Of a stretch of DNA of 64,000 bases, positions 7,860 through 38,334 are shown in pieces. Below the pieces are notes generated by a model. That model searched no databases, was not told the origin of the DNA, and was given only the letters and a program-made list of their open reading frames with translations. Numbering within the stretch: position 1 is the stretch's first letter; each line of letters opens with the position of its first letter. The stretch lies in IMG/VR virus record IMGVR_UViG_3300030397_000824, positions 37,047 to 101,046 of that record, one strand, 5' to 3'. The position numbers and the translations under genes were made by a program. This DNA is from a virus.

Positions 7860-9929
7860 TTATAATCCAAGACCGCCACCGCCGAGTCCGCCACCACCGA
7901 GGCCACCGGCATCATCAGCCGGTGTTACATACACCTTCTGAATCATTTTCATACGCTTGGAGTTTTCGACACGTCGCGACATGTGTGATTTTCTCACCTT
8001 CTGAAGCATCGCTAGTGTGATTGTTTGACCCCCGTTGTGGATGAAGTCCTCATGATTTTCTACATTCGTTCCAAGCGGATGTAGTTGGTCATTCGGAGTT
8101 TCTGCACGCCCGTGCTCATCGGATGCTTCCGGAGCAGGCTTAAGATCGGCACCTGTTATTGGTGCTTCTGTTAATAGTTCTCTGAAATTCACATCTTCTG
8201 CCTCGCCAAATCCAGCGCCACTACCGATGGCTCCGGACATTGCCATACCACCACCAGCGGCATCAGCGCCAGTTGCACCGAAGTCTCCTCCCATGTCTCC
8301 CATAGCTCCAAAACCAGAGTCGCCACCCGGTGCCAAACCAAGTGGGTCTCCCCCGGGAGGAGGCATAGAACCGAATCCACCACCGCCGAGGCCATCACCC
8401 ATTTCTGCGAAGTCCGCAGCATCCTTCGGATCAAAGCGCTCTTCCAGAATCATCCTCTCATTACGAGCGATTTCATCCGGGGTCCAGTTCATATATTTTT
8501 CTAGGGCGAATCGACGGCTGATGTATGGCTCGTCTTTTACAGTTTGCCACACGTTGATATTATCTTGGTCGCGGGCATTGTTCTTAAAATCTTCGTAATT
8601 CGTTGGGTCGTTGAACGCCATGTCAAAGTCGGAACCCAAAATATTGACATCACGTACTTTGCAGTACATCTTGAATTCGAAGTCAAATGGATCATCGAGA
8701 TTTTTCTGGATGCGCGAACAACGTTCCGAAAAGTTGATTTCTTCCTGATATGCAACACCGACACGCCCGTCATTGAATACGGAGCCCCCTTCTTCAGGAC
8801 CAAGCAACCACGAGTGCGGAACCTGCATGGCACGCATCATCTTCTTTGTGAAGTATTGCAAATCTGGTAGTTCATTCCATGGCTGACCTTCGAGGGTTTC
8901 GACCTTGGAGCCACGCTGGTCGAAAGATACCGGAATGTAGATATCTTCCAACTGGGAAATAGGATTGTAAACAGAATCGACTCCACGGTTCTCTTGGCCG
9001 ATTACCTGCGGGACGCGCTTCTGGTTCAATTCGTTCTTGAAATTGTTTACGACCCATGAGGAACGGTCTGCACGCATTTTACCAGTATCGATATACCATA
9101 CGGTACGCGAGGGTGCACGCTGCACTCGGTGAATCAGGGCTGCGTCTTCGAGAAGTTCTCGTTGCTTGAATGTCTTACTGGCGTCTTCTAAAATCGATTC
9201 GCCAAAGGGCCAGCGGTTGTTATACCGGTCCGATGGGTCATCATCACCCGTAGCACCCGCAAATTTACCCTCACTCATTGACAAGTGAACAATATGACTT
9301 GCCGGTATGACTTTGGTGTTGCGCATTCCGGACGAAAGGCTCAAGCTTTTTATGGAATCTTGGAGTCCACGGTTATCAACCGCGAGTTCGATATTCTCAA
9401 CATTGAATTTGAAGTTCCGGACGATCCATGCCACGACTTCTACAGTTTCGTGGTCAACCAGTGCACCAAGCACGAAGCGCGGGTGTAGGGAAAATAACTC
9501 GAAGGTGTCGGGGTTACGGAAGTAAAACCAATCTCCGTATTTTATAACATCCCGGAAGTGACGCCAAAGTCTCTTATCCCATTCATTGATTCGGCTCCAC
9601 TGGGTCATGTTCTCCATGATGAGTGCCGATTCTTCTTCGGTTGGGTCTAGAGCCCAGTTGAATTTCCAGAAATGATTTTCGTCGTTCTTGGGCGTACAAT
9701 GCTCAGCGGTAATGTCAAGCGCTCGCGCTACGTCGGAGTCTTGATCCATCCAGTCATATAACTTATATCGCTCCATGCGGTCGTAACGACCACGATAAAC
9801 CTGTTGGAGCATATTGAAGTTATCACTGGACCCAGACCACGAGTTATCACCCCCATGGGTATGGAGGGTAATTTTTCTCTTGCGACGATTCTTACTCAGA
9901 TTCGGTGACGCGGTGGTGGTCCAAGCCAT
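7860..9929 (-). CDS. gp20: Portal protein (T4 gp20-like) with Gly-rich linker and C-terminal extension
   Basis: MDQDSDVARALD, ESILE, LLEDAALIHRVQRAP.R.V.YIDTG, EDIYIP, RGSKVETL.G. Confidence 0.95.
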   Translation of the reverse strand: MAWTTTASPNLSKNRRKRKITLHTHGGDNSWSGSSDNFNMLQQVYRGRYDRMERYKLYDWMDQDSDVARALDITAEHCTPKNDENHFWKFNWALDPTEEESALIMENMTQWSRINEWDKRLWRHFRDVIKYGDWFYFRNPDTFELFSLHPRFVLGALVDHETVEVVAWIVRNFKFNVENIELAVDNRGLQDSIKSLSLSSGMRNTKVIPASHIVHLSMSEGKFAGATGDDDPSDRYNNRWPFGESILEDASKTFKQRELLEDAALIHRVQRAPSRTVWYIDTGKMRADRSSWVVNNFKNELNQKRVPQVIGQENRGVDSVYNPISQLEDIYIPVSFDQRGSKVETLEGQPWNELPDLQYFTKKMMRAMQVPHSWLLGPEEGGSVFNDGRVGVAYQEEINFSERCSRIQKNLDDPFDFEFKMYCKVRDVNILGSDFDMAFNDPTNYEDFKNNARDQDNINVWQTVKDEPYISRRFALEKYMNWTPDEIARNERMILEERFDPKDAADFAEMGDGLGGGGFGSMPPPGGDPLGLAPGGDSGFGAMGDMGGDFGATGADAAGGGMAMSGAIGSGAGFGEAEDVNFRELLTEAPITGADLKPAPEASDEHGRAETPNDQLHPLGTNVENHEDFIHNGGQTITLAMLQKVRKSHMSRRVENSKRMKMIQKVYVTPADDAGGLGGGGLGGGGLGL

Positions 9930-10001: not shown

Positions 10002-12380
10002 TTATTGGTCAAGTAGTGGGGTATAAGCGCTCACCCCAGTTGTGGTTCCTCTACGATTCATCGGAATTGATTTCTTTCCGGTTTGTGCTGGCCCACCTGA
10101 TTTATTGATGGCGTCCAAGGTATCCGTTCGTGCTGCATTACCAGCGATTGTCAACTGAATCAATTGATCCAATTGGTTTGTTTGTTTGGCCAATTCAACG
10201 TTTGTTGGATCATCTTTCAGTGATACTATTTCTGGCTTGGTAACGTCTGATGGAGCTACCACAGCCGCATCCCCGGCTGATTGCGGTGCTACTCCCTTAA
10301 CTGCGGAGACACCTTGCTTACGATTGAGCGCGGAATCTATCTTCGCTTTCTTTTCAGCCAACTTCATCTGTTCGAATTGTTCCATGGCATTCAACCGCTT
10401 CGTCGCTTCGTCATTCCCGAAGAACGATAGAACATTATCAACAGCGCTACCAACAGCATCACCAATATTGGTGGTTGTTTCTGGTGCGATGTCTTTGAGG
10501 AAGTCATATACGTCAGACCGTCCGGTAAAAACAGCTTGTCCTGCTTGATGCAAACCAAATCCTGCTGCTGCACCTGCGGCAACAGTAGCGGCACCGGCTC
10601 CGCTGATTAAACCACCAGCACCCCTTGCCATAGAACCAACTCCTCCCCGAGCGGCATTTACGGCTCCACCAAAACCACCTTTCATTTTACCACCGAGTCT
10701 ACCCATCATTCCTCTACCCAGTCCTCCCCGGGCTAAGGTATTGGCAATGATAGCTGCGGTGTTGGCACCCAGTGCAACCACGAGTGCTGCACCACCACCC
10801 AAATTATTCTTAATCGTTTCTTGAAACGTATTGAACATACCTTGGGCAGTTGCATCCATCGTTCCTTCTGTGGCTTTTTGTTGTTCACGAAGGGCTTCGA
10901 GTGTTGCATCCTTACCTTCTTTCGCAAGTGCCACCTGAGCAGAAATTATTCTCTCTGCGTTTACCGATACTTCAGCAAGAGCTTGGAAACGATTTCCGGA
11001 ATCTTCTCGCAATACTGATGCAGCTTCCATGGTTTGTCCGGTCAATCCCTCAAGACCACTTGCCAATTCAATCATCCGCTGTAATGCTTCAGGGGTTCCT
11101 CCTGTAGAACTTTGGCTAATACGGAACAACTCTCGTACCAATGCGTCATTGTTGCCTTGTGACATCATAAGGGCTGCACCCTCACGACGTTGGAACATAT
11201 CGATGCCACCAGCTTCAACGATTTCCTGTACCAAATCAGATAATGAACCCAACCCCTGTGACTCAAACATAGTACGTTGGGCACGCATGGATTCTAGGGT
11301 TTGCTGGCTGATAAGCCCGTTGAAGCGCAATTCTTCGAGGGTCATGGCATCGTCTTCTTGAAGCTTCATAACTTCAGCAACCGTCTTACCAGTAGCAAAG
11401 GCAATGTCTTTCAATAGTTGTATTTGGTCGCGTGTTTGGCGGCTAGTCAGGATAGAGTCATTACTAGCTTGGACACCAGCACGGCGCTGTTGTTCCAGAA
11501 TTTGAGTCTGGATAACATTCATTTCTTCGAATGGGATGCGTTCGAGGAATTCCGCACCAAATGCTTCTTTGGCTGCGTCTCTATTTTCTTTAAAGGTTTG
11601 AGCTACCTCTTCTAGGTTCGAACCCAACGTACCAATCAACAACCGCTGCTGTTCTGCAAATTCCATAACAACAGGGAATGTAGAATTCAATGCATCACGA
11701 TTCTTCAGAAGTCCAGCGCCAAGATCATCGAGAAGTGCGGTGACACCAATCATGCCACCCTGACCGGCTTTGAACATTTCGTCAATAGTGCCCATGGCAT
11801 CCCGGGCTGCTCCCTGAACATCCATCAACGATTGACCAAAGTCGATCACCGATTGGTTGACACTGAGCATGTTCTTTTCGAACTCAGTTACCGCACCCTG
11901 CTTGAACAGTTTGAAAAACTTGGAAAATGCCGGTAGTTTGGTCTGCTGGAATATTTCAGCGGCTTCTTCAGACGCTTCGAATACCTTACGGGCTGCTTGT
12001 GCGCCAGCAAAGCTAATTCCTTCTTCGCCGCCACCGCCGCCTTCGCCGCCACCACCAGATGCCTTGGACAGCAACGCCTTTAGGTTTTCGTTAATGTTCT
12101 TGAGTTGTTCCATCGCATCCGGGCTTGTTGTGCCCCCACTCGATGAAACAGAATCGGAAATTTCTTTTTTGGTGTCCTTGATGAGTTTGCCCAAAGAACG
12201 CGTTTGTTCGTCGCAGCAATCAACAAGCTGTCGTAGCAGTTCGGTCTGTTCGTCCTTTAAGTCACCCGTAGCAACATTTCTACGAGTGACGGTTACATCA
12301 CCGCTCGTATTAACATTGACTGGTGATCCCCGCTCTGTGGCGGAATCACTTGGTTGGCCGGGATTGGTAGGTTCTGCCAC
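10002..12380 (-). CDS. Tape measure protein
   Basis: 792 aa helical, Ala/Gly-rich hydrophobic segments near C-terminus, downstream of gp26-like gene; GTG start with GGAG. Confidence 0.75.
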   Translation of the reverse strand: MAEPTNPGQPSDSATERGSPVNVNTSGDVTVTRRNVATGDLKDEQTELLRQLVDCCDEQTRSLGKLIKDTKKEISDSVSSSGGTTSPDAMEQLKNINENLKALLSKASGGGGEGGGGGEEGISFAGAQAARKVFEASEEAAEIFQQTKLPAFSKFFKLFKQGAVTEFEKNMLSVNQSVIDFGQSLMDVQGAARDAMGTIDEMFKAGQGGMIGVTALLDDLGAGLLKNRDALNSTFPVVMEFAEQQRLLIGTLGSNLEEVAQTFKENRDAAKEAFGAEFLERIPFEEMNVIQTQILEQQRRAGVQASNDSILTSRQTRDQIQLLKDIAFATGKTVAEVMKLQEDDAMTLEELRFNGLISQQTLESMRAQRTMFESQGLGSLSDLVQEIVEAGGIDMFQRREGAALMMSQGNNDALVRELFRISQSSTGGTPEALQRMIELASGLEGLTGQTMEAASVLREDSGNRFQALAEVSVNAERIISAQVALAKEGKDATLEALREQQKATEGTMDATAQGMFNTFQETIKNNLGGGAALVVALGANTAAIIANTLARGGLGRGMMGRLGGKMKGGFGGAVNAARGGVGSMARGAGGLISGAGAATVAAGAAAGFGLHQAGQAVFTGRSDVYDFLKDIAPETTTNIGDAVGSAVDNVLSFFGNDEATKRLNAMEQFEQMKLAEKKAKIDSALNRKQGVSAVKGVAPQSAGDAAVVAPSDVTKPEIVSLKDDPTNVELAKQTNQLDQLIQLTIAGNAARTDTLDAINKSGGPAQTGKKSIPMNRRGTTTGVSAYTPLLDQ

Positions 12381-12432: not shown

Positions 12433-12690
12433 TCATGTATTCTGGGAATCTGGTTTTGTTTCTTCCTTTGGTGAAAGAATCAGACTGATGGATATCAAAA
12501 TCACAAAGAAAAGAGCGATTATCCCCATTGCTCCGTAAAGCCCTATTTCCTCGGCGTAGTAAAAGGGAACGATCCATACGGCGAACCCAAGGGGAAGGCA
12601 TATCAGAAACAGACCGAACGAAAGAATCGAACTTGGTTCCCCGATATAATCTCTCGGGATATCGTCATTGGGTATGTTTTTTCTGGGCAT
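12433..12690 (-). CDS. Small two-TM membrane protein (moron-like)
   Basis: Two hydrophobic helices; GGAG RBS; own sigma70 promoter. Confidence 0.7.
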   Translation of the reverse strand: MPRKNIPNDDIPRDYIGEPSSILSFGLFLICLPLGFAVWIVPFYYAEEIGLYGAMGIIALFFVILISISLILSPKEETKPDSQNT

Positions 12691-12720
12691 ATCGACTCCA
12701 CAACAAAACTCAGAACGTGG

Positions 12721-12749
12721 ATAATAGCAGGTAGTTGAAATTTTGTCAA
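12721..12749 (-). promoter_or_regulatory. sigma70-type promoter
   Basis: TTGACA-N17-TATTAT. Confidence 0.75.
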
Positions 12750-12754
12750 GAAAT

Positions 12755-13066
12755 TTAAAATTCCCCGATGTTGTCCATATTCGTTGTTTTTCCGGTAGCC
12801 TTATTAATCATATCCTCCTTTTTCTTATTGGCCCTATTGATGACATCGGATAGGAGTTTGATTTCTCGATTGGGGTAACGCTTCAATGTCTCGTACTGAA
12901 TTGCTCCCCCATATGCGAGGGATATTTCAGCAAGAATTGCTAGCGTACTCTCCTTTTCTTCGCGCCTTGCTTCGATTTCTGCGAGGGCTTCTTCGGCTGT
13001 GTTGAATCCCCCGCTTGCCCAAAAAGCCGGTTGGCGTCCAACTCTAGCCTGAATGTTTGTTCCCCA
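12755..13066 (-). CDS. Start-less -1 frame ORF (gp51/gpT-like), probable frameshift extension of gp26-like gene
   Basis: Open from TAA at 13067-13069 to TAA at 12755; ...AEEALAEIEARREEKESTLAILAEISLAYGGAIQYETLKRYPNREIKLLSDVINRANKKKEDM...; no ATG/GTG/TTG before the helical region. Confidence 0.65.
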   Translation of the reverse strand, partial: WGTNIQARVGRQPAFWASGGFNTAEEALAEIEARREEKESTLAILAEISLAYGGAIQYETLKRYPNREIKLLSDVINRANKKKEDMINKATGKTTNMDNIGEF

Positions 13067-13959
13067 TTACACTCCTCACAATTGTATTTGATATCGGAGA
13101 ATGAGACGATCCATTCAGAAATCTCATTGATCTTTTCGGTTAGACCTTCGGCTTCATCGGTTGGTAGATTCAATAACCACTCACGAATATATTCTTGTCC
13201 GTCAACAGCTTTACCATCCGAACGCTCAACCGAATGGATTGAGGCTTCAAGGTTGTCCAGCGCTGTATCGGATGCCATGTCGATAATACGCGAGTAATTT
13301 TTGATCGCCTCTTCGTTGACAACCATCTCGTCGAGTTTCATATCACCCATGGAGTCAATCTTTTTGTTCCGAGCTAAGCTCTCTTTCATCTGTTCGATGA
13401 CTCGCTTGTACGACGGTGGGCGCAGATTTACTTTTTGTGGTACCCGTTTCAGGCGGTAAGTGAACAACTCTTCCGCAAGGTCATCTTGGATAACCTCATA
13501 CCGAAGAATGTGTTCATTGATATCGAGTACCAAGGTGTTTTCATGTCCACATCGACCGTTGAGTTCTTCACCATCCTCAACTGCCTCACCCTCTTCTGGT
13601 TCTCTGGGTACCAAATTTTGACAAACGTGCTTCAGTTCGAGTTTGGGTCCATAGCTCACTAAACGCGAGGCCAGTAGGATAGCTTCCAAATCCAACTCAC
13701 ACAACTCTGAAGCCAATAATACATCAGGGCAAATACCTTTCATCATTCTGGGAATGGCTTCACCGGAAAGCAGCAACCACGGATCACGATAGTTTTGTTC
13801 TGCGAGAATGCCGAGAACCCCGACCGGCAAATCCAGCGGATCAGCTTCGGCAGAGATAACATTCTCGGGGTACCAACGACCACCAGTCGGTAATGCAACC
13901 GAAACGGACGGAAAAGCATCATTCTCGATTAGGTCTTGGATCAATGGGTTGTTTGACAT
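12940..13959 (-). CDS. gp26: Baseplate hub assembly chaperone (T4 gp26-like)
   Basis: LPTGGRWYP, DLEAILLASRLVSYG, Cys pairs, C-terminal CxxC; upstream of tape measure. Confidence 0.8.
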   Translation of the reverse strand: MSNNPLIQDLIENDAFPSVSVALPTGGRWYPENVISAEADPLDLPVGVLGILAEQNYRDPWLLLSGEAIPRMMKGICPDVLLASELCELDLEAILLASRLVSYGPKLELKHVCQNLVPREPEEGEAVEDGEELNGRCGHENTLVLDINEHILRYEVIQDDLAEELFTYRLKRVPQKVNLRPPSYKRVIEQMKESLARNKKIDSMGDMKLDEMVVNEEAIKNYSRIIDMASDTALDNLEASIHSVERSDGKAVDGQEYIREWLLNLPTDEAEGLTEKINEISEWIVSFSDIKYNCEECNGEQTFRLELDANRLFGQAGDSTQPKKPSQKSKQGAKKRRVR

Positions 13960-36700: not shown

Positions 36701-38334
36701 ATAGTGTTTGGACATGGCAGGATGGTCTTTATCAGGGTATTAGCGAATACTCTGTAGCAACCACCGGAACCAACACAACTGTTTCATATACGTCTCCTCC
36801 TGCGGCAGGCGTCGTTGTGTCTGTTGCCGTCCAGTTTAGTCCGACTCTGGTCAGTAGTAACACTTACGACTTTGGTGCATCGGATGGCATCACAACAAAT
36901 TATGTTCTTTCTGACGATACAAATGTAACCGATGATACCACACTCGTATTTCTTGATGGTGTGGCTCAGGCATCTTCTGCGTGGGCAAATGTATCGCCGT
37001 CATCATGGTCTGCGCCGGGAACCAACAATATCACCTTCGCAGTAGCGCCTGTCGCCAGCGTGGATGTTGCTATGTTCCATTGGCCCGGTGGTGTTGGTAC
37101 TGACCCGAACGCAACGGCTGGCCAGACCGGTCTTGGATTCGGTGGCGGAGAAATCACAGAATTGCCATTCGGAACTAACAACCTCGGTAACATATCAGTG
37201 CAATCACTACTGGTTTCTTACCTTGGGACCGATGTGCCGCTATTCGTCGAAGACACTATAAAAACACCAGACGGGTATGTTAACCCGAATGGTCTGGAAG
37301 TGCGTCCCGCTGATGTGGACAACAGTGGTTTTGCTGATAGTCCATTCATCTTCAAAGACATTGTTCTTCAGGATGGCTTCACCGATTTGGTTCTGTGGCG
37401 CGAAATTGAGGAATTCGGTTTTACAGTACTCGACCCGATTAGTTTAACAACCGGCCCACGGGGAACTTACGGATTATCGACCGGTAATGATATTGCCGAA
37501 GGTGAAGCCATCGATAATAGTGGATTTACCTCCGGTATCCCGGAACAAGTTCAGACCGCTCTGGATCAAACCCAATTCACCGTCCAAAATGGTGATATTC
37601 ATTATGACCTTGCGACGGATACTTGGTTGGTTGCGGACCTTCAAACCACGGTAACGTGGATTGCTGCTCCAGATCAAACCGCATTCAAACATTTGGTTGG
37701 TCGTAGTAACCTGAAATTCATGTGGTTGCATTATGCCCCAGACGCAGTTCGTATTGATCCATCCGTGTCGAACGTTATGGACGTTTATCTGTTGACCACA
37801 ACATACGATGACGCGTTCCGTACAGCACTCGACAACAATACTCCGGTTGCAGATTTACCAGCGGCACCAACGACAGAATCACTACGCATCGACTTTGCTG
37901 ACTTTGATGACTTCAAGGCGATGAGCGATGCACTGATTTACCATTCAGCACGTTACAAAATCTTGTTTGGTGAGCAAGCCGATACTGAATTACAGGCAAC
38001 ATTCAAAGTTGTCCAATCGGAAGGTTCTCTTCTCAGTGAAAATGATCTGAAGCTGAGAATCCTCGATGCTATTGATGTGTATTTCCAAGTTGATAACTGG
38101 GATTTCGGTGAAATATTCTATATGACCGAACTTCTGGCGTTCATCCACCAAGAATTGGCACCGAATATTCAGACAGTCGTGGCTGTTCCAAATGCGGATA
38201 CTGAGTCCTTCGGTCGGCTATTCCAGATTCGTTCCGAGCCCGATGAGCTATTCATTTCTGCTGCTAGCGCGGACGACATCGAGGTGGTTAATTCGTTCAC
38301 TGACGAAGAACTCCGAATCGGAATAATTTCGTAA
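33754..38334 (+). CDS. gp6: Baseplate wedge subunit gp6-like (1526 aa) with inserted beta-repeat region
   Basis: ENFL.TAERR.S..RLA, V.FGDG.FG.IP, QNRMITG.DY, C-terminal IDPS.SN..D.Y. Confidence 0.88.
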   Translation: MGVLQRQNTLFVSEDWVRIYEAIQNVDFRAYDFDNYVAALLDHLRDVFPEEFNDWIASSEFIMKVEVLAWLSQNISFRIDLNTRENFLATAERRDSLIRLAQNVSYKVSRVRGASGRVRVEAVRTTQSIFDSNNIDLQDREIRWNDPRNEDFFEQFILVMNAAFTGRTQFGRPLTRVTSGTTRAEQYVFNGRAPAAGSYTFTATVNGVSLPFDIINANLNKDTARSEEIAPNPENAYNVLYFTDGKGLASDGTGFFFEMRQGTMQFQEEEFVQPEVVRTVDIETQNINNDDFFVEQLDAQGVVEEVWEEVDTIFGESVSFLPTDTTGFIDEGSDNTGNQATGNARRVYELDTLENDRVRVRFGDGSFGEIPLGRFRFWYRTSNPQPQLVTTSDIGEQSFTIPYESDGTIYFLTVTVSLKEDIGNAASSETNFSIRTRANQVFYTQNRMITGRDYNAFFLRDNAIRKVKSVNRTFSGQSRFAKLHDPTGLYENLKIVASDGRFYQERITGVNFASADTSILTNPLLIQNVIEPQLAEANKEQLYFNDYPEQFFPTTHFWFEDSVVNQESRGRIVETVDAAGTSIAVGDATVAIPARYILTDSVLRLDNPRGATVRVERVTDDTGSSADSIILERNINDDIRIVSVFPPFRDKFTEAEKVLIEQQLELKLDFGLSWIQDTQTWSIILAENLDKQESGGDFSLVNQGDTSGLNLDQSWMVYLEFVPGGTDEDQWRVVDRGLGVFFESDRENDFYFAGNEPVVDPETGQVNSDTILILESNESRDSLRRRNITNLNITPIIQCDVFCYQFIGDGATTQFTTSENPLSPTVTITVDDVLQLNGIDFNIISQVSGDIIEFVVPPADGADILVCISLNDILRTTTTRVFIDVQGDGATDTYDLGVESPVQAENLFVFIDGVYQRPFIDYSTTTLINNNAAILLTSTLPSGANMFVYGLGGISEPLFGRFDFVADGVLTDFTVAVGNQTDDSVWTWQDGLYQGISEYSVATTGTNTTVSYTSPPAAGVVVSVAVQFSPTLVSSNTYDFGASDGITTNYVLSDDTNVTDDTTLVFLDGVAQASSAWANVSPSSWSAPGTNNITFAVAPVASVDVAMFHWPGGVGTDPNATAGQTGLGFGGGEITELPFGTNNLGNISVQSLLVSYLGTDVPLFVEDTIKTPDGYVNPNGLEVRPADVDNSGFADSPFIFKDIVLQDGFTDLVLWREIEEFGFTVLDPISLTTGPRGTYGLSTGNDIAEGEAIDNSGFTSGIPEQVQTALDQTQFTVQNGDIHYDLATDTWLVADLQTTVTWIAAPDQTAFKHLVGRSNLKFMWLHYAPDAVRIDPSVSNVMDVYLLTTTYDDAFRTALDNNTPVADLPAAPTTESLRIDFADFDDFKAMSDALIYHSARYKILFGEQADTELQATFKVVQSEGSLLSENDLKLRILDAIDVYFQVDNWDFGEIFYMTELLAFIHQELAPNIQTVVAVPNADTESFGRLFQIRSEPDELFISAASADDIEVVNSFTDEELRIGIIS

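Follow-up and report, generated by a model that had tools for sequence, protein, structure and literature searches.

We have analyzed a 64,000-nucleotide stretch of viral DNA (the window; positions 37,047 to 101,046 of the IMG/VR virus record IMGVR_UViG_3300030397_000824), in which a gp26-like baseplate-hub assembly gene is overlapped at its 3' end by an open -1 reading frame. Comparison of this locus with its relatives points, with a probability of roughly three in four, to a programmed -1 frameshift that would make a short (339 amino acids, aa) and a long (401 aa) form of a hub/tape-measure assembly chaperone. The same frame architecture was present in 11 out of 11 members of the window clade and in 12 out of 12 more distant loci, which places it far beyond chance. 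The record that holds the window is 103 kb long with a CheckV completeness of 28%, indicating that the window stems from a giant phage.

The gp26-like gene overlaps an open -1 frame

The elements under study are the following:

13959..12940, minus strand: gp26-like baseplate-hub assembly gene, frame 0, 339-aa short form (PF12322, phrog_150).
12940..13020, minus strand: 0-frame tail, 26 codons plus TAG, K/R-rich, overlapping the -1 frame.
12755..13021, minus strand: -1 frame extension, 88 codons, homologous to the -1 open reading frames (ORFs) of 17 other loci.
13021..13027, minus strand: proposed slip site G CTT TTT (0-frame codons CTT at 13026-13024 and TTT at 13023-13021), invariant in 11 of 11 clade members.

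The gp26-like protein matched PF12322 (T4_baseplate) over residues 71-305 with an E-value of 4e-7 (30.3 bits against a cutoff of 24.5, Pfam hidden Markov model; 28.8 bits on the gene in a six-frame search), and its PHROG match was phrog_150 “baseplate hub.” The two CxxC-type half-sites of PF12322 are present in the window protein, and the conserved cysteines of the gp26 family comprise the invariant C113, C294, and C297 and the nearly invariant C137 (alignment A8). The C-terminal (N/D)PxxFF motif of the family reads DANRLF in the window. The body of the protein covers residues 1-313 and is followed by a 26-aa K/R-rich basic tail, which is variable in sequence among the members of the window clade and is probably incidental to the acidic -1 frame.

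The -1 frame opens after the TAA at 13069..13067 and runs for 103 codons to the TAA at 12757..12755. Its first ATG, GTG, or TTG is the TTG at 12886, with none ahead of codon 61, and its peptide had no match in PHROGs or Pfam. The candidate runs in the overlap are CTT TTT GGG (13026..13018) and GCG GGG GAT (13014..13006), both read on the minus strand. A slip on the T-run would join the 313 residues of the body to the 88 of the extension, giving 401 aa; the predicted transframe junction tryptic peptide is LFWASGGFNTAEEALAEIEAR, and its 0-frame counterpart is LFGQAGDSTQPK. An initial annotation of this DNA, made from the sequence alone, had already described the basic tail, the 103-codon frame and the missing start codons ahead of it, the two runs, their departure from a canonical heptamer, and products of 339 and about 401 aa. 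All of these held when the coordinates were checked, and recoding at the T-run is further backed by its conservation in the clade.

The frame architecture is conserved in the window clade

Protein and pattern searches provided ten further assemblies, so that the window clade comprised 11 independent assemblies (the window, L003, L004, L012-L014, and L029-L033). The extensions of the ten share 41-76% identity with that of the window. Every member carries (C/A)GG CTT TTT in frame 0 at the same place, with the -1 frame open; the codon that follows CTT TTT is GGG in ten members and ACG in L032. The 0-frame tail measures 26-32 codons throughout the clade. IMG/VR searches, in which the window's own record was possibly outside the scope, gave no match to related loci with the gp26 protein, none with the clade extension alignment, and none to the exact 28-nucleotide (nt) block.

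We have then compared the codon differences between pairs of clade members in both frames. Upstream of the T-run, the synonymous share of these differences was 43% in frame 0 and 6% in the -1 frame. The shares were 20% and 49%, respectively, in the overlap, and 7% and 39% downstream. This switch, located exactly at the T-run, indicates that frame 0 gives way there to the -1 frame as the target of selection on the protein.

The locus was also recovered in contigs from three DNA runs of one aquatic-metagenome study, where the stretch was reproduced at about 300x without any indel at the T-run; these runs are possibly the window's own source sample and hence are not independent.

A canonical heptamer occupies the same place in distant giant phages

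The 12 distant loci belong to eight phages (RaK2, GAP32, XacN1, Xoo-sp13, Atu_ph07, PA5oct, RsoM2USA, and Vibrio 2.275.O) and to four metagenomic sequences. In tblastn comparisons, the homology of the window protein to the gp26 of the eight phages extends only to residue ~313, the position of the slip site. In all 12 loci, the gp26 gene ends with the (N/D)PxxFF motif on an in-phase T TTT TTC or T TTT TTT, and the codon ahead of the run always ends in T while encoding seven different residues. Beyond this heptamer the -1 frame stays open for 64-79 codons, the +1 frame being closed in 11 out of the 11 loci where it was tabulated, and the -1 peptides align with the window extension. A sequencing error was considered as the origin of the window's frames and rejected, given the agreement between the eleven assemblies, the 12 distant loci, and the ~300x reads.

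When a library of 1.84 billion representative proteins was searched with the extension profile, 465 clusters matched, nearly all of them short and with variable called starts. A PF12322 gene directly precedes the extension ORF on every contig fetched, and, among 76 unfused gp26 clusters, 75 terminate 1-6 residues past FF. The complete genomes of RaK2, XacN1, PA5oct, and Atu_ph07 have one PF12322 gene each, and T4 has two.

Public records either leave the extension unannotated or call hypothetical genes of 40-67 aa that start at an internal Met, and none of the eight records inspected annotates a joined coding sequence for body and extension. Unannotated gaps that follow gp26 and contain the -1 extension were seen in RaK2 (L002, 5780-6145), PA5oct (L007, 3310-3534), and RsoM2USA (L010, 3283-4685), and the extension is called a hypothetical gene as Xoo-sp13_287, XacN1 ORF316, GAP32_242, NVP2275O_435, and Atu_ph07 gp687. 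The PA5oct record holds an electrospray ionization tandem mass spectrometry note on a neighboring structural protein and none on the gp26 homolog.

Body and extension occur as natural one-ORF fusions

Twenty-three close clusters of 335-340 aa, on contigs of up to 360 kb, encode the PF12322 body and the extension in a single ORF, and further one-ORF fusions are found in P0165, P0174, and P0179 (325-334 aa). The fusion junction, F-R(Q/N)KLI, matches the predicted transframe junction FF-RxKLL, and its DNA reads AAT TTT AGA, without a long T-run. These natural fusions, which are carried by one clade, are the strongest evidence that the fused polypeptide is the functional product.

The AlphaFold2 model of one natural fusion (149-row alignment) was a single globule with a predicted local distance difference test score (pLDDT) of 96.2 and a predicted template modeling (TM) score of 0.92, the extension forming helices at 259-268, 272-299, 306-309, and 314-334. 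Modeled alone, the window extension reached a pLDDT of 80.7, with helices at 10-37, 44-47, and 52-78. A long-short-long helix pattern is thus predicted for both the window extension and that of the fusion. The model of a natural fusion homolog, and not of the whole window protein, matched the BFVD entry “baseplate hub assembly protein, T4-like” (E 2e-15, TM 0.65-0.76). Searches with Foldseek (PDB and AFDB Swiss-Prot) and VIA-align (48,161 chains) returned only generic helical-hairpin matches and no convincing solved relative. Finally, predicting a complex of the window gp26 body and the -1 peptide as two chains gave a score of 0.01, which is evidence neither way.

The proposed slip site is non-canonical and lies in a conserved block

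Two further elements surround the slip site:

12973..13035, minus strand: nearly invariant block of 63 nt that includes the slip site and continues past it.
12981..13014, minus strand: predicted G+C-rich hairpin, 7 + 3 pairs, candidate frameshift stimulator (RNAalifold, RNAfold).

The window slip site is in register with the T TTT TTY heptamer of its relatives. A canonical X XXY YYZ heptamer in the 0-frame phase was found in 12 out of 12 loci outside the clade and not in the window. A slip in the window would be unusual, since its site is not a textbook heptamer. The P-site codon is non-repairing, and the transfer RNA (tRNA) on UUU alone can re-pair after the -1 shift. To judge from its letters, the site looks like single-tRNA (U UUU) slippage, which would be expected to be inefficient unless stimulated.

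The 63-nt block was delimited by aligning, without gaps, six clade members whose sequences elsewhere differ at the majority of wobble positions. Among the five further loci it shows few changes in four, and it diverges in L032. Within it, the hairpin starts 6 nt past the U-run, which is the usual spacing for a stimulator. GCGGGGG pairs with CCCUCGC, three more pairs are added, and the stability is -15 kcal/mol. The pairs are invariant in ten members, the variable positions being confined to the spacer and the loops. Significant hairpins are predicted 4-13 nt downstream of the run in most of the other lineages, with z values of -3.2 to -5.1 in XacN1, Xoo-sp13, L017, PA5oct, RsoM2USA, and L018. 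Rfam had no match for 12700-13200.

A slip on the G-run GCG GGG GAT was also considered and discarded: between the two runs, GCA is replaced by GCC, a substitution that is silent only when read in the -1 frame, and the relatives align to the T-run.

Two additional observations were made around the block. A 5-bp hairpin, GTTGG-ACG-CCAAC (13030-13042, minus strand), followed by CGG and T5, lies directly 5' of the slip site; it is terminator-like by consensus scan, is partly kept in relatives, and has a possible pausing role. In run X3, the assembly breaks at a 30-nt piece of the conserved block (12980-13009), beyond which a low-depth contig (16x) carries a different sequence. The sample of run X3 probably contains a second, related phage that shares the block.

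We propose that most ribosomes would read frame 0 and make the 339-aa short form, that is, the gp26 body with its basic tail, and that, on the U-run of CGG CUU UUU (13029..13021), a fraction of them would shift one base backward. As the CUU tRNA is unable to re-pair, the slip would most likely involve only the tRNA-Phe on UUU. Slipped ribosomes would continue in the -1 frame for 88 codons, yielding the 401-aa long form, whose three-helix C-terminal domain may pack onto the body. The likely stimulator would be the conserved G+C-rich hairpin that lies 6 nt downstream. The two forms would act together as chaperones for the baseplate hub and the tape-measure protein, the T4 equivalents being genes 26 and 51.

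Gene neighborhood

Downstream of the extension, we have recognized the following features:

12721..12749, minus strand: sigma-70-like promoter, TTGACA-17-TATTAT, 11/12 matches, extended TG.
12433..12690, minus strand: predicted membrane protein of 85 aa (from the ORF list), between gp26 and the tape-measure-like gene.
10002..12380, minus strand: tape-measure-like protein of 792 aa, so called by size, position, and Gly/Ala-rich segments only.
7860..9929, minus strand: T4 gp20-type portal gene (PF07230, E 6e-64; phrog_213).

The initial annotation had placed the gp26-like gene just upstream of a tape measure gene. The 792-aa ORF is indeed found there, with the 85-aa ORF in between, and the association of gp26 with a large tape-measure-like gene is kept across lineages. 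The 792-aa protein had no match in Pfam or PHROGs, and its BLASTP comparison with the RaK2 counterpart, annotated as tape-measure-protein-like, was not significant (E 0.07). The 85-aa membrane ORF also had no Pfam or PHROG match; syntenic small ORFs of 79, 85, and 83 aa occur in L003, L013, and L014, and a 55-aa ORF stands at the equivalent place in L004. No tube gene lies upstream of the window gp26 gene.

The promoter-like site lies 6 nt past the stop codon of the extension, upstream of the 85-aa ORF and the tape-measure-like gene, and has a counterpart in L003 (TTGACA-17-CATAAT). Such a near-perfect sigma-70-type promoter ahead of a late structural gene was unexpected. In the portal protein (689 aa), the PF07230 match ends at residue 497 and is followed by a long Gly-rich extension at the C-terminus.

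Weighing the frameshift against other explanations

Several observations weigh against a programmed frameshift that serves a chaperone. The window site is not X XXY YYZ, and CUU would face GCU after a -1 slip, so that the efficiency may be low. The window hairpin has a z value of -0.4 against shuffles, meaning that it is no stabler than shuffled sequence. It offers no covariation, since its pairs never vary, and L032 folds into a different hairpin that is not in register. The nucleotide invariance of the 63-nt block could partly reflect the two overlapping frames. The tape-measure identity of the 792-aa neighbor is positional only, and the promoter-like site separates this gene from gp26. The link between the extension and the tail of T4 gp51 is weak (probability 29%, see below). 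No RNA runs carrying the locus were found among public runs.

An improbable alternative is transcriptional slippage, in which RNA polymerase would add one U on the T-run and a subset of the mRNA would encode the fusion. One added U yields a protein identical to that of a -1 ribosomal slip. Polymerase slippage occurs in bacteria at run lengths of T6 to T9, which is the range of the runs in the relatives (T9 in RsoM2USA), and in the window the GTTGG-ACG-CCAAC hairpin stands just 5' of the T-run. However, all 11 members of the window clade have a run of just T5, a short one for a polymerase to slip on; for this run, the T7-T9 lineages apart, such a mechanism is unlikely. Moreover, the 12 other loci hold the run in the X XXY YYZ phase without exception, and phase matters to ribosomes and not to the polymerase, so that phase-locked runs argue against the latter. 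The significant hairpins downstream of the run in most lineages are also what ribosomal frameshifting predicts.

We hold it quite improbable that the -1 ORF is a separate small gene, with its own start (for instance the non-canonical ATT at 13054..13052, or else the internal TTG at 12886), whose product would bind gp26 as a subunit. Gene callers do annotate the extension ORFs of relatives as hypothetical proteins of 40-126 aa. The initial annotation had suggested to look in relatives for a conserved T-run and a missing start codon. The T-run was kept in all 11 members, and the second expectation was borne out in part: five of them, including the window, have no ATG, GTG, or TTG between the upstream -1 stop and the T-run, whereas in the other six an ATG or GTG occurs 15 codons ahead of the T-run, as a side effect of a conserved frame-0 Cys codon. 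These starts are conserved neither in place nor in kind, and a Shine-Dalgarno sequence for the -1 ORF was found in none of the 11 members. A start at the internal TTG would leave the invariant residues right after the T-run untranslated. In addition, a -1 stop codon lies 1-3 codons ahead of the heptamer in RaK2, GAP32, and Vibrio 2.275.O, as well as in the Atu_ph07 pair (L005 and L015), PA5oct, and L017. The -1-frame conservation begins exactly at the T-run, and natural in-frame fusions exist.

It is highly improbable that the frameshift is decaying in the window clade, with the extension no longer made, or that an assembly error or a pseudogene accounts for the locus. The heptamer is indeed degenerate, and frame 0 runs on for 26-32 codons instead of 1-10. 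Yet the 11 assemblies, diverged to 41% identity, all keep an intact -1 frame under purifying selection, the sequence is identical at ~300x in the three runs, possibly of the window's own source sample, and the window extension is still predicted to fold like its homologs.

Comparison with known systems

The non-canonical slip site, the 63-nt conserved block, and the long basic 0-frame tail are what is new in the window. A report of a gp26 frameshift was not found in the literature, most subscription journals being outside the scope of the search. The window offers a natural test case, in which a non-canonical slip site is maintained by selection, for the minimal needs of bacterial -1 frameshifting. 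The comparison also amends the records of hundreds of phage genomes, in which the extension has been overlooked or listed as a hypothetical gene of its own.

The closest systems are the giant phages of the RaK2, GAP32, PA5oct, XacN1, and Atu_ph07 types, which have a homologous body and extension and the same slip-site register as the window. They carry the canonical T TTT TTY, whereas members of the window clade read G CTT TTT, with GGG or ACG as the next codon. Their 0-frame tail takes 1-10 codons, in contrast to the 26-32 of the window clade, and the 63-nt near-invariant block is a feature of the window clade, unlike the phages with canonical heptamers. The gp26 gene is co-directional with the tape-measure-like and portal genes in the window and divergent in RaK2 and GAP32.

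In T4, gp26 and gp51 belong to the same protein family as the window protein. Both match PF12322 over its full length, which makes them paralogs. The body of the window protein is ~100 residues longer. T4 thus uses two paralogous genes where the window has one, in a common genomic neighborhood, the hub/tape-measure gene cluster. T4 gp26 (208 aa) ends in EFFELL, right after the FF motif, as does the 0-frame product; the corresponding DNA is TTC TTT, so that T4 gp26 is without a slippery run, and gene 25 begins at the gp26 stop codon. T4 gp51 (249 aa) keeps the NPxxFxF motif as NPDEIFxFY and then adds ~40 residues. The first long helix of the extension is absent from this tail. The P-x-E-R...EK motif of the extension is present there as Y..xIMxMxPxERxIxxxLxEKDxK and could be aligned to the last part of the extension family (probability 29%, hhalign E 6e-4). 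The alignment is suggestive of a relationship between the gp51 tail and the extension, without proving it.

Since gp51 is a full-length paralog of gp26 with an added C-terminal tail, gp26 is the counterpart of the short product and gp51 that of the long one. The initial annotation had supposed that gp26-like and gp51-like genes were joined here by frameshifting. Its -1 recoding stands, whereas the -1 ORF turned out not to be a gp51-like gene: it encodes a three-helix C-terminal domain of 75-88 aa. A review of the T4 tail lists gp26 and gp51 as hub assembly chaperones, with roles that are still poorly defined (PMC3004832). In GenBank MN709128 (Acinetobacter phage Berthold, L023), the gp26 and gp51 homologs are both named “tape measure protein assembly chaperone”; no paper was found that supports this assignment. 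The conserved frameshift in the gp26/gp51 family, together with its one-ORF and two-gene versions, provides a testable model of the roles of these proteins.

The third comparison is with the tail assembly chaperones of long-tailed phages, among which programmed -1 frameshifting is, to our knowledge, near-universal. Xu, Hendrix, and Duda are said to have described in 2004 the conserved -1 frameshift of these genes (lambda G/GT, P2 E/E+E', Mu), and T4-type phages are reportedly the exception to their rule. The initial annotation had drawn the parallel with lambda G/GT, and as a working analogy it fits. In lambda gpG/gpGT, as in the window, a -1 frameshift near the 3' end gives a short and a C-terminally extended form with a common N-terminal part, a trait that the window displays by comparative sequence only. 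The lambda G/GT gene adjoins the tape-measure gene, and the window gene lies near a tape-measure-like one. Lambda gpG/gpGT is a non-virion tail assembly factor, and by analogy the short and long forms may act as non-virion chaperones of hub/tape-measure assembly. Unlike in the G/GT arrangement, the window gp26 gene does not follow a tube gene, and its slip site is a non-canonical heptamer when set against the lambda-type system. No sequence or fold similarity to gpG or gpT was found, so the window pair would “work like” G/GT and is not a member of that family. Pfam gave no chaperone family, and no solved chaperone was among the Foldseek and VIA matches listed, which leaves room for a relation.

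We tentatively suggest, at somewhat less than even odds, that the gp26/gp51 family is the missing G/GT counterpart of T4-type phages. The ancestral state would be a single gene with a -1 frameshift, which T4 would have resolved into genes 26 and 51, and one clade of giant phages into a fused ORF. In the window clade, a bare U UUU together with a structured block would have sufficed over a long divergence.

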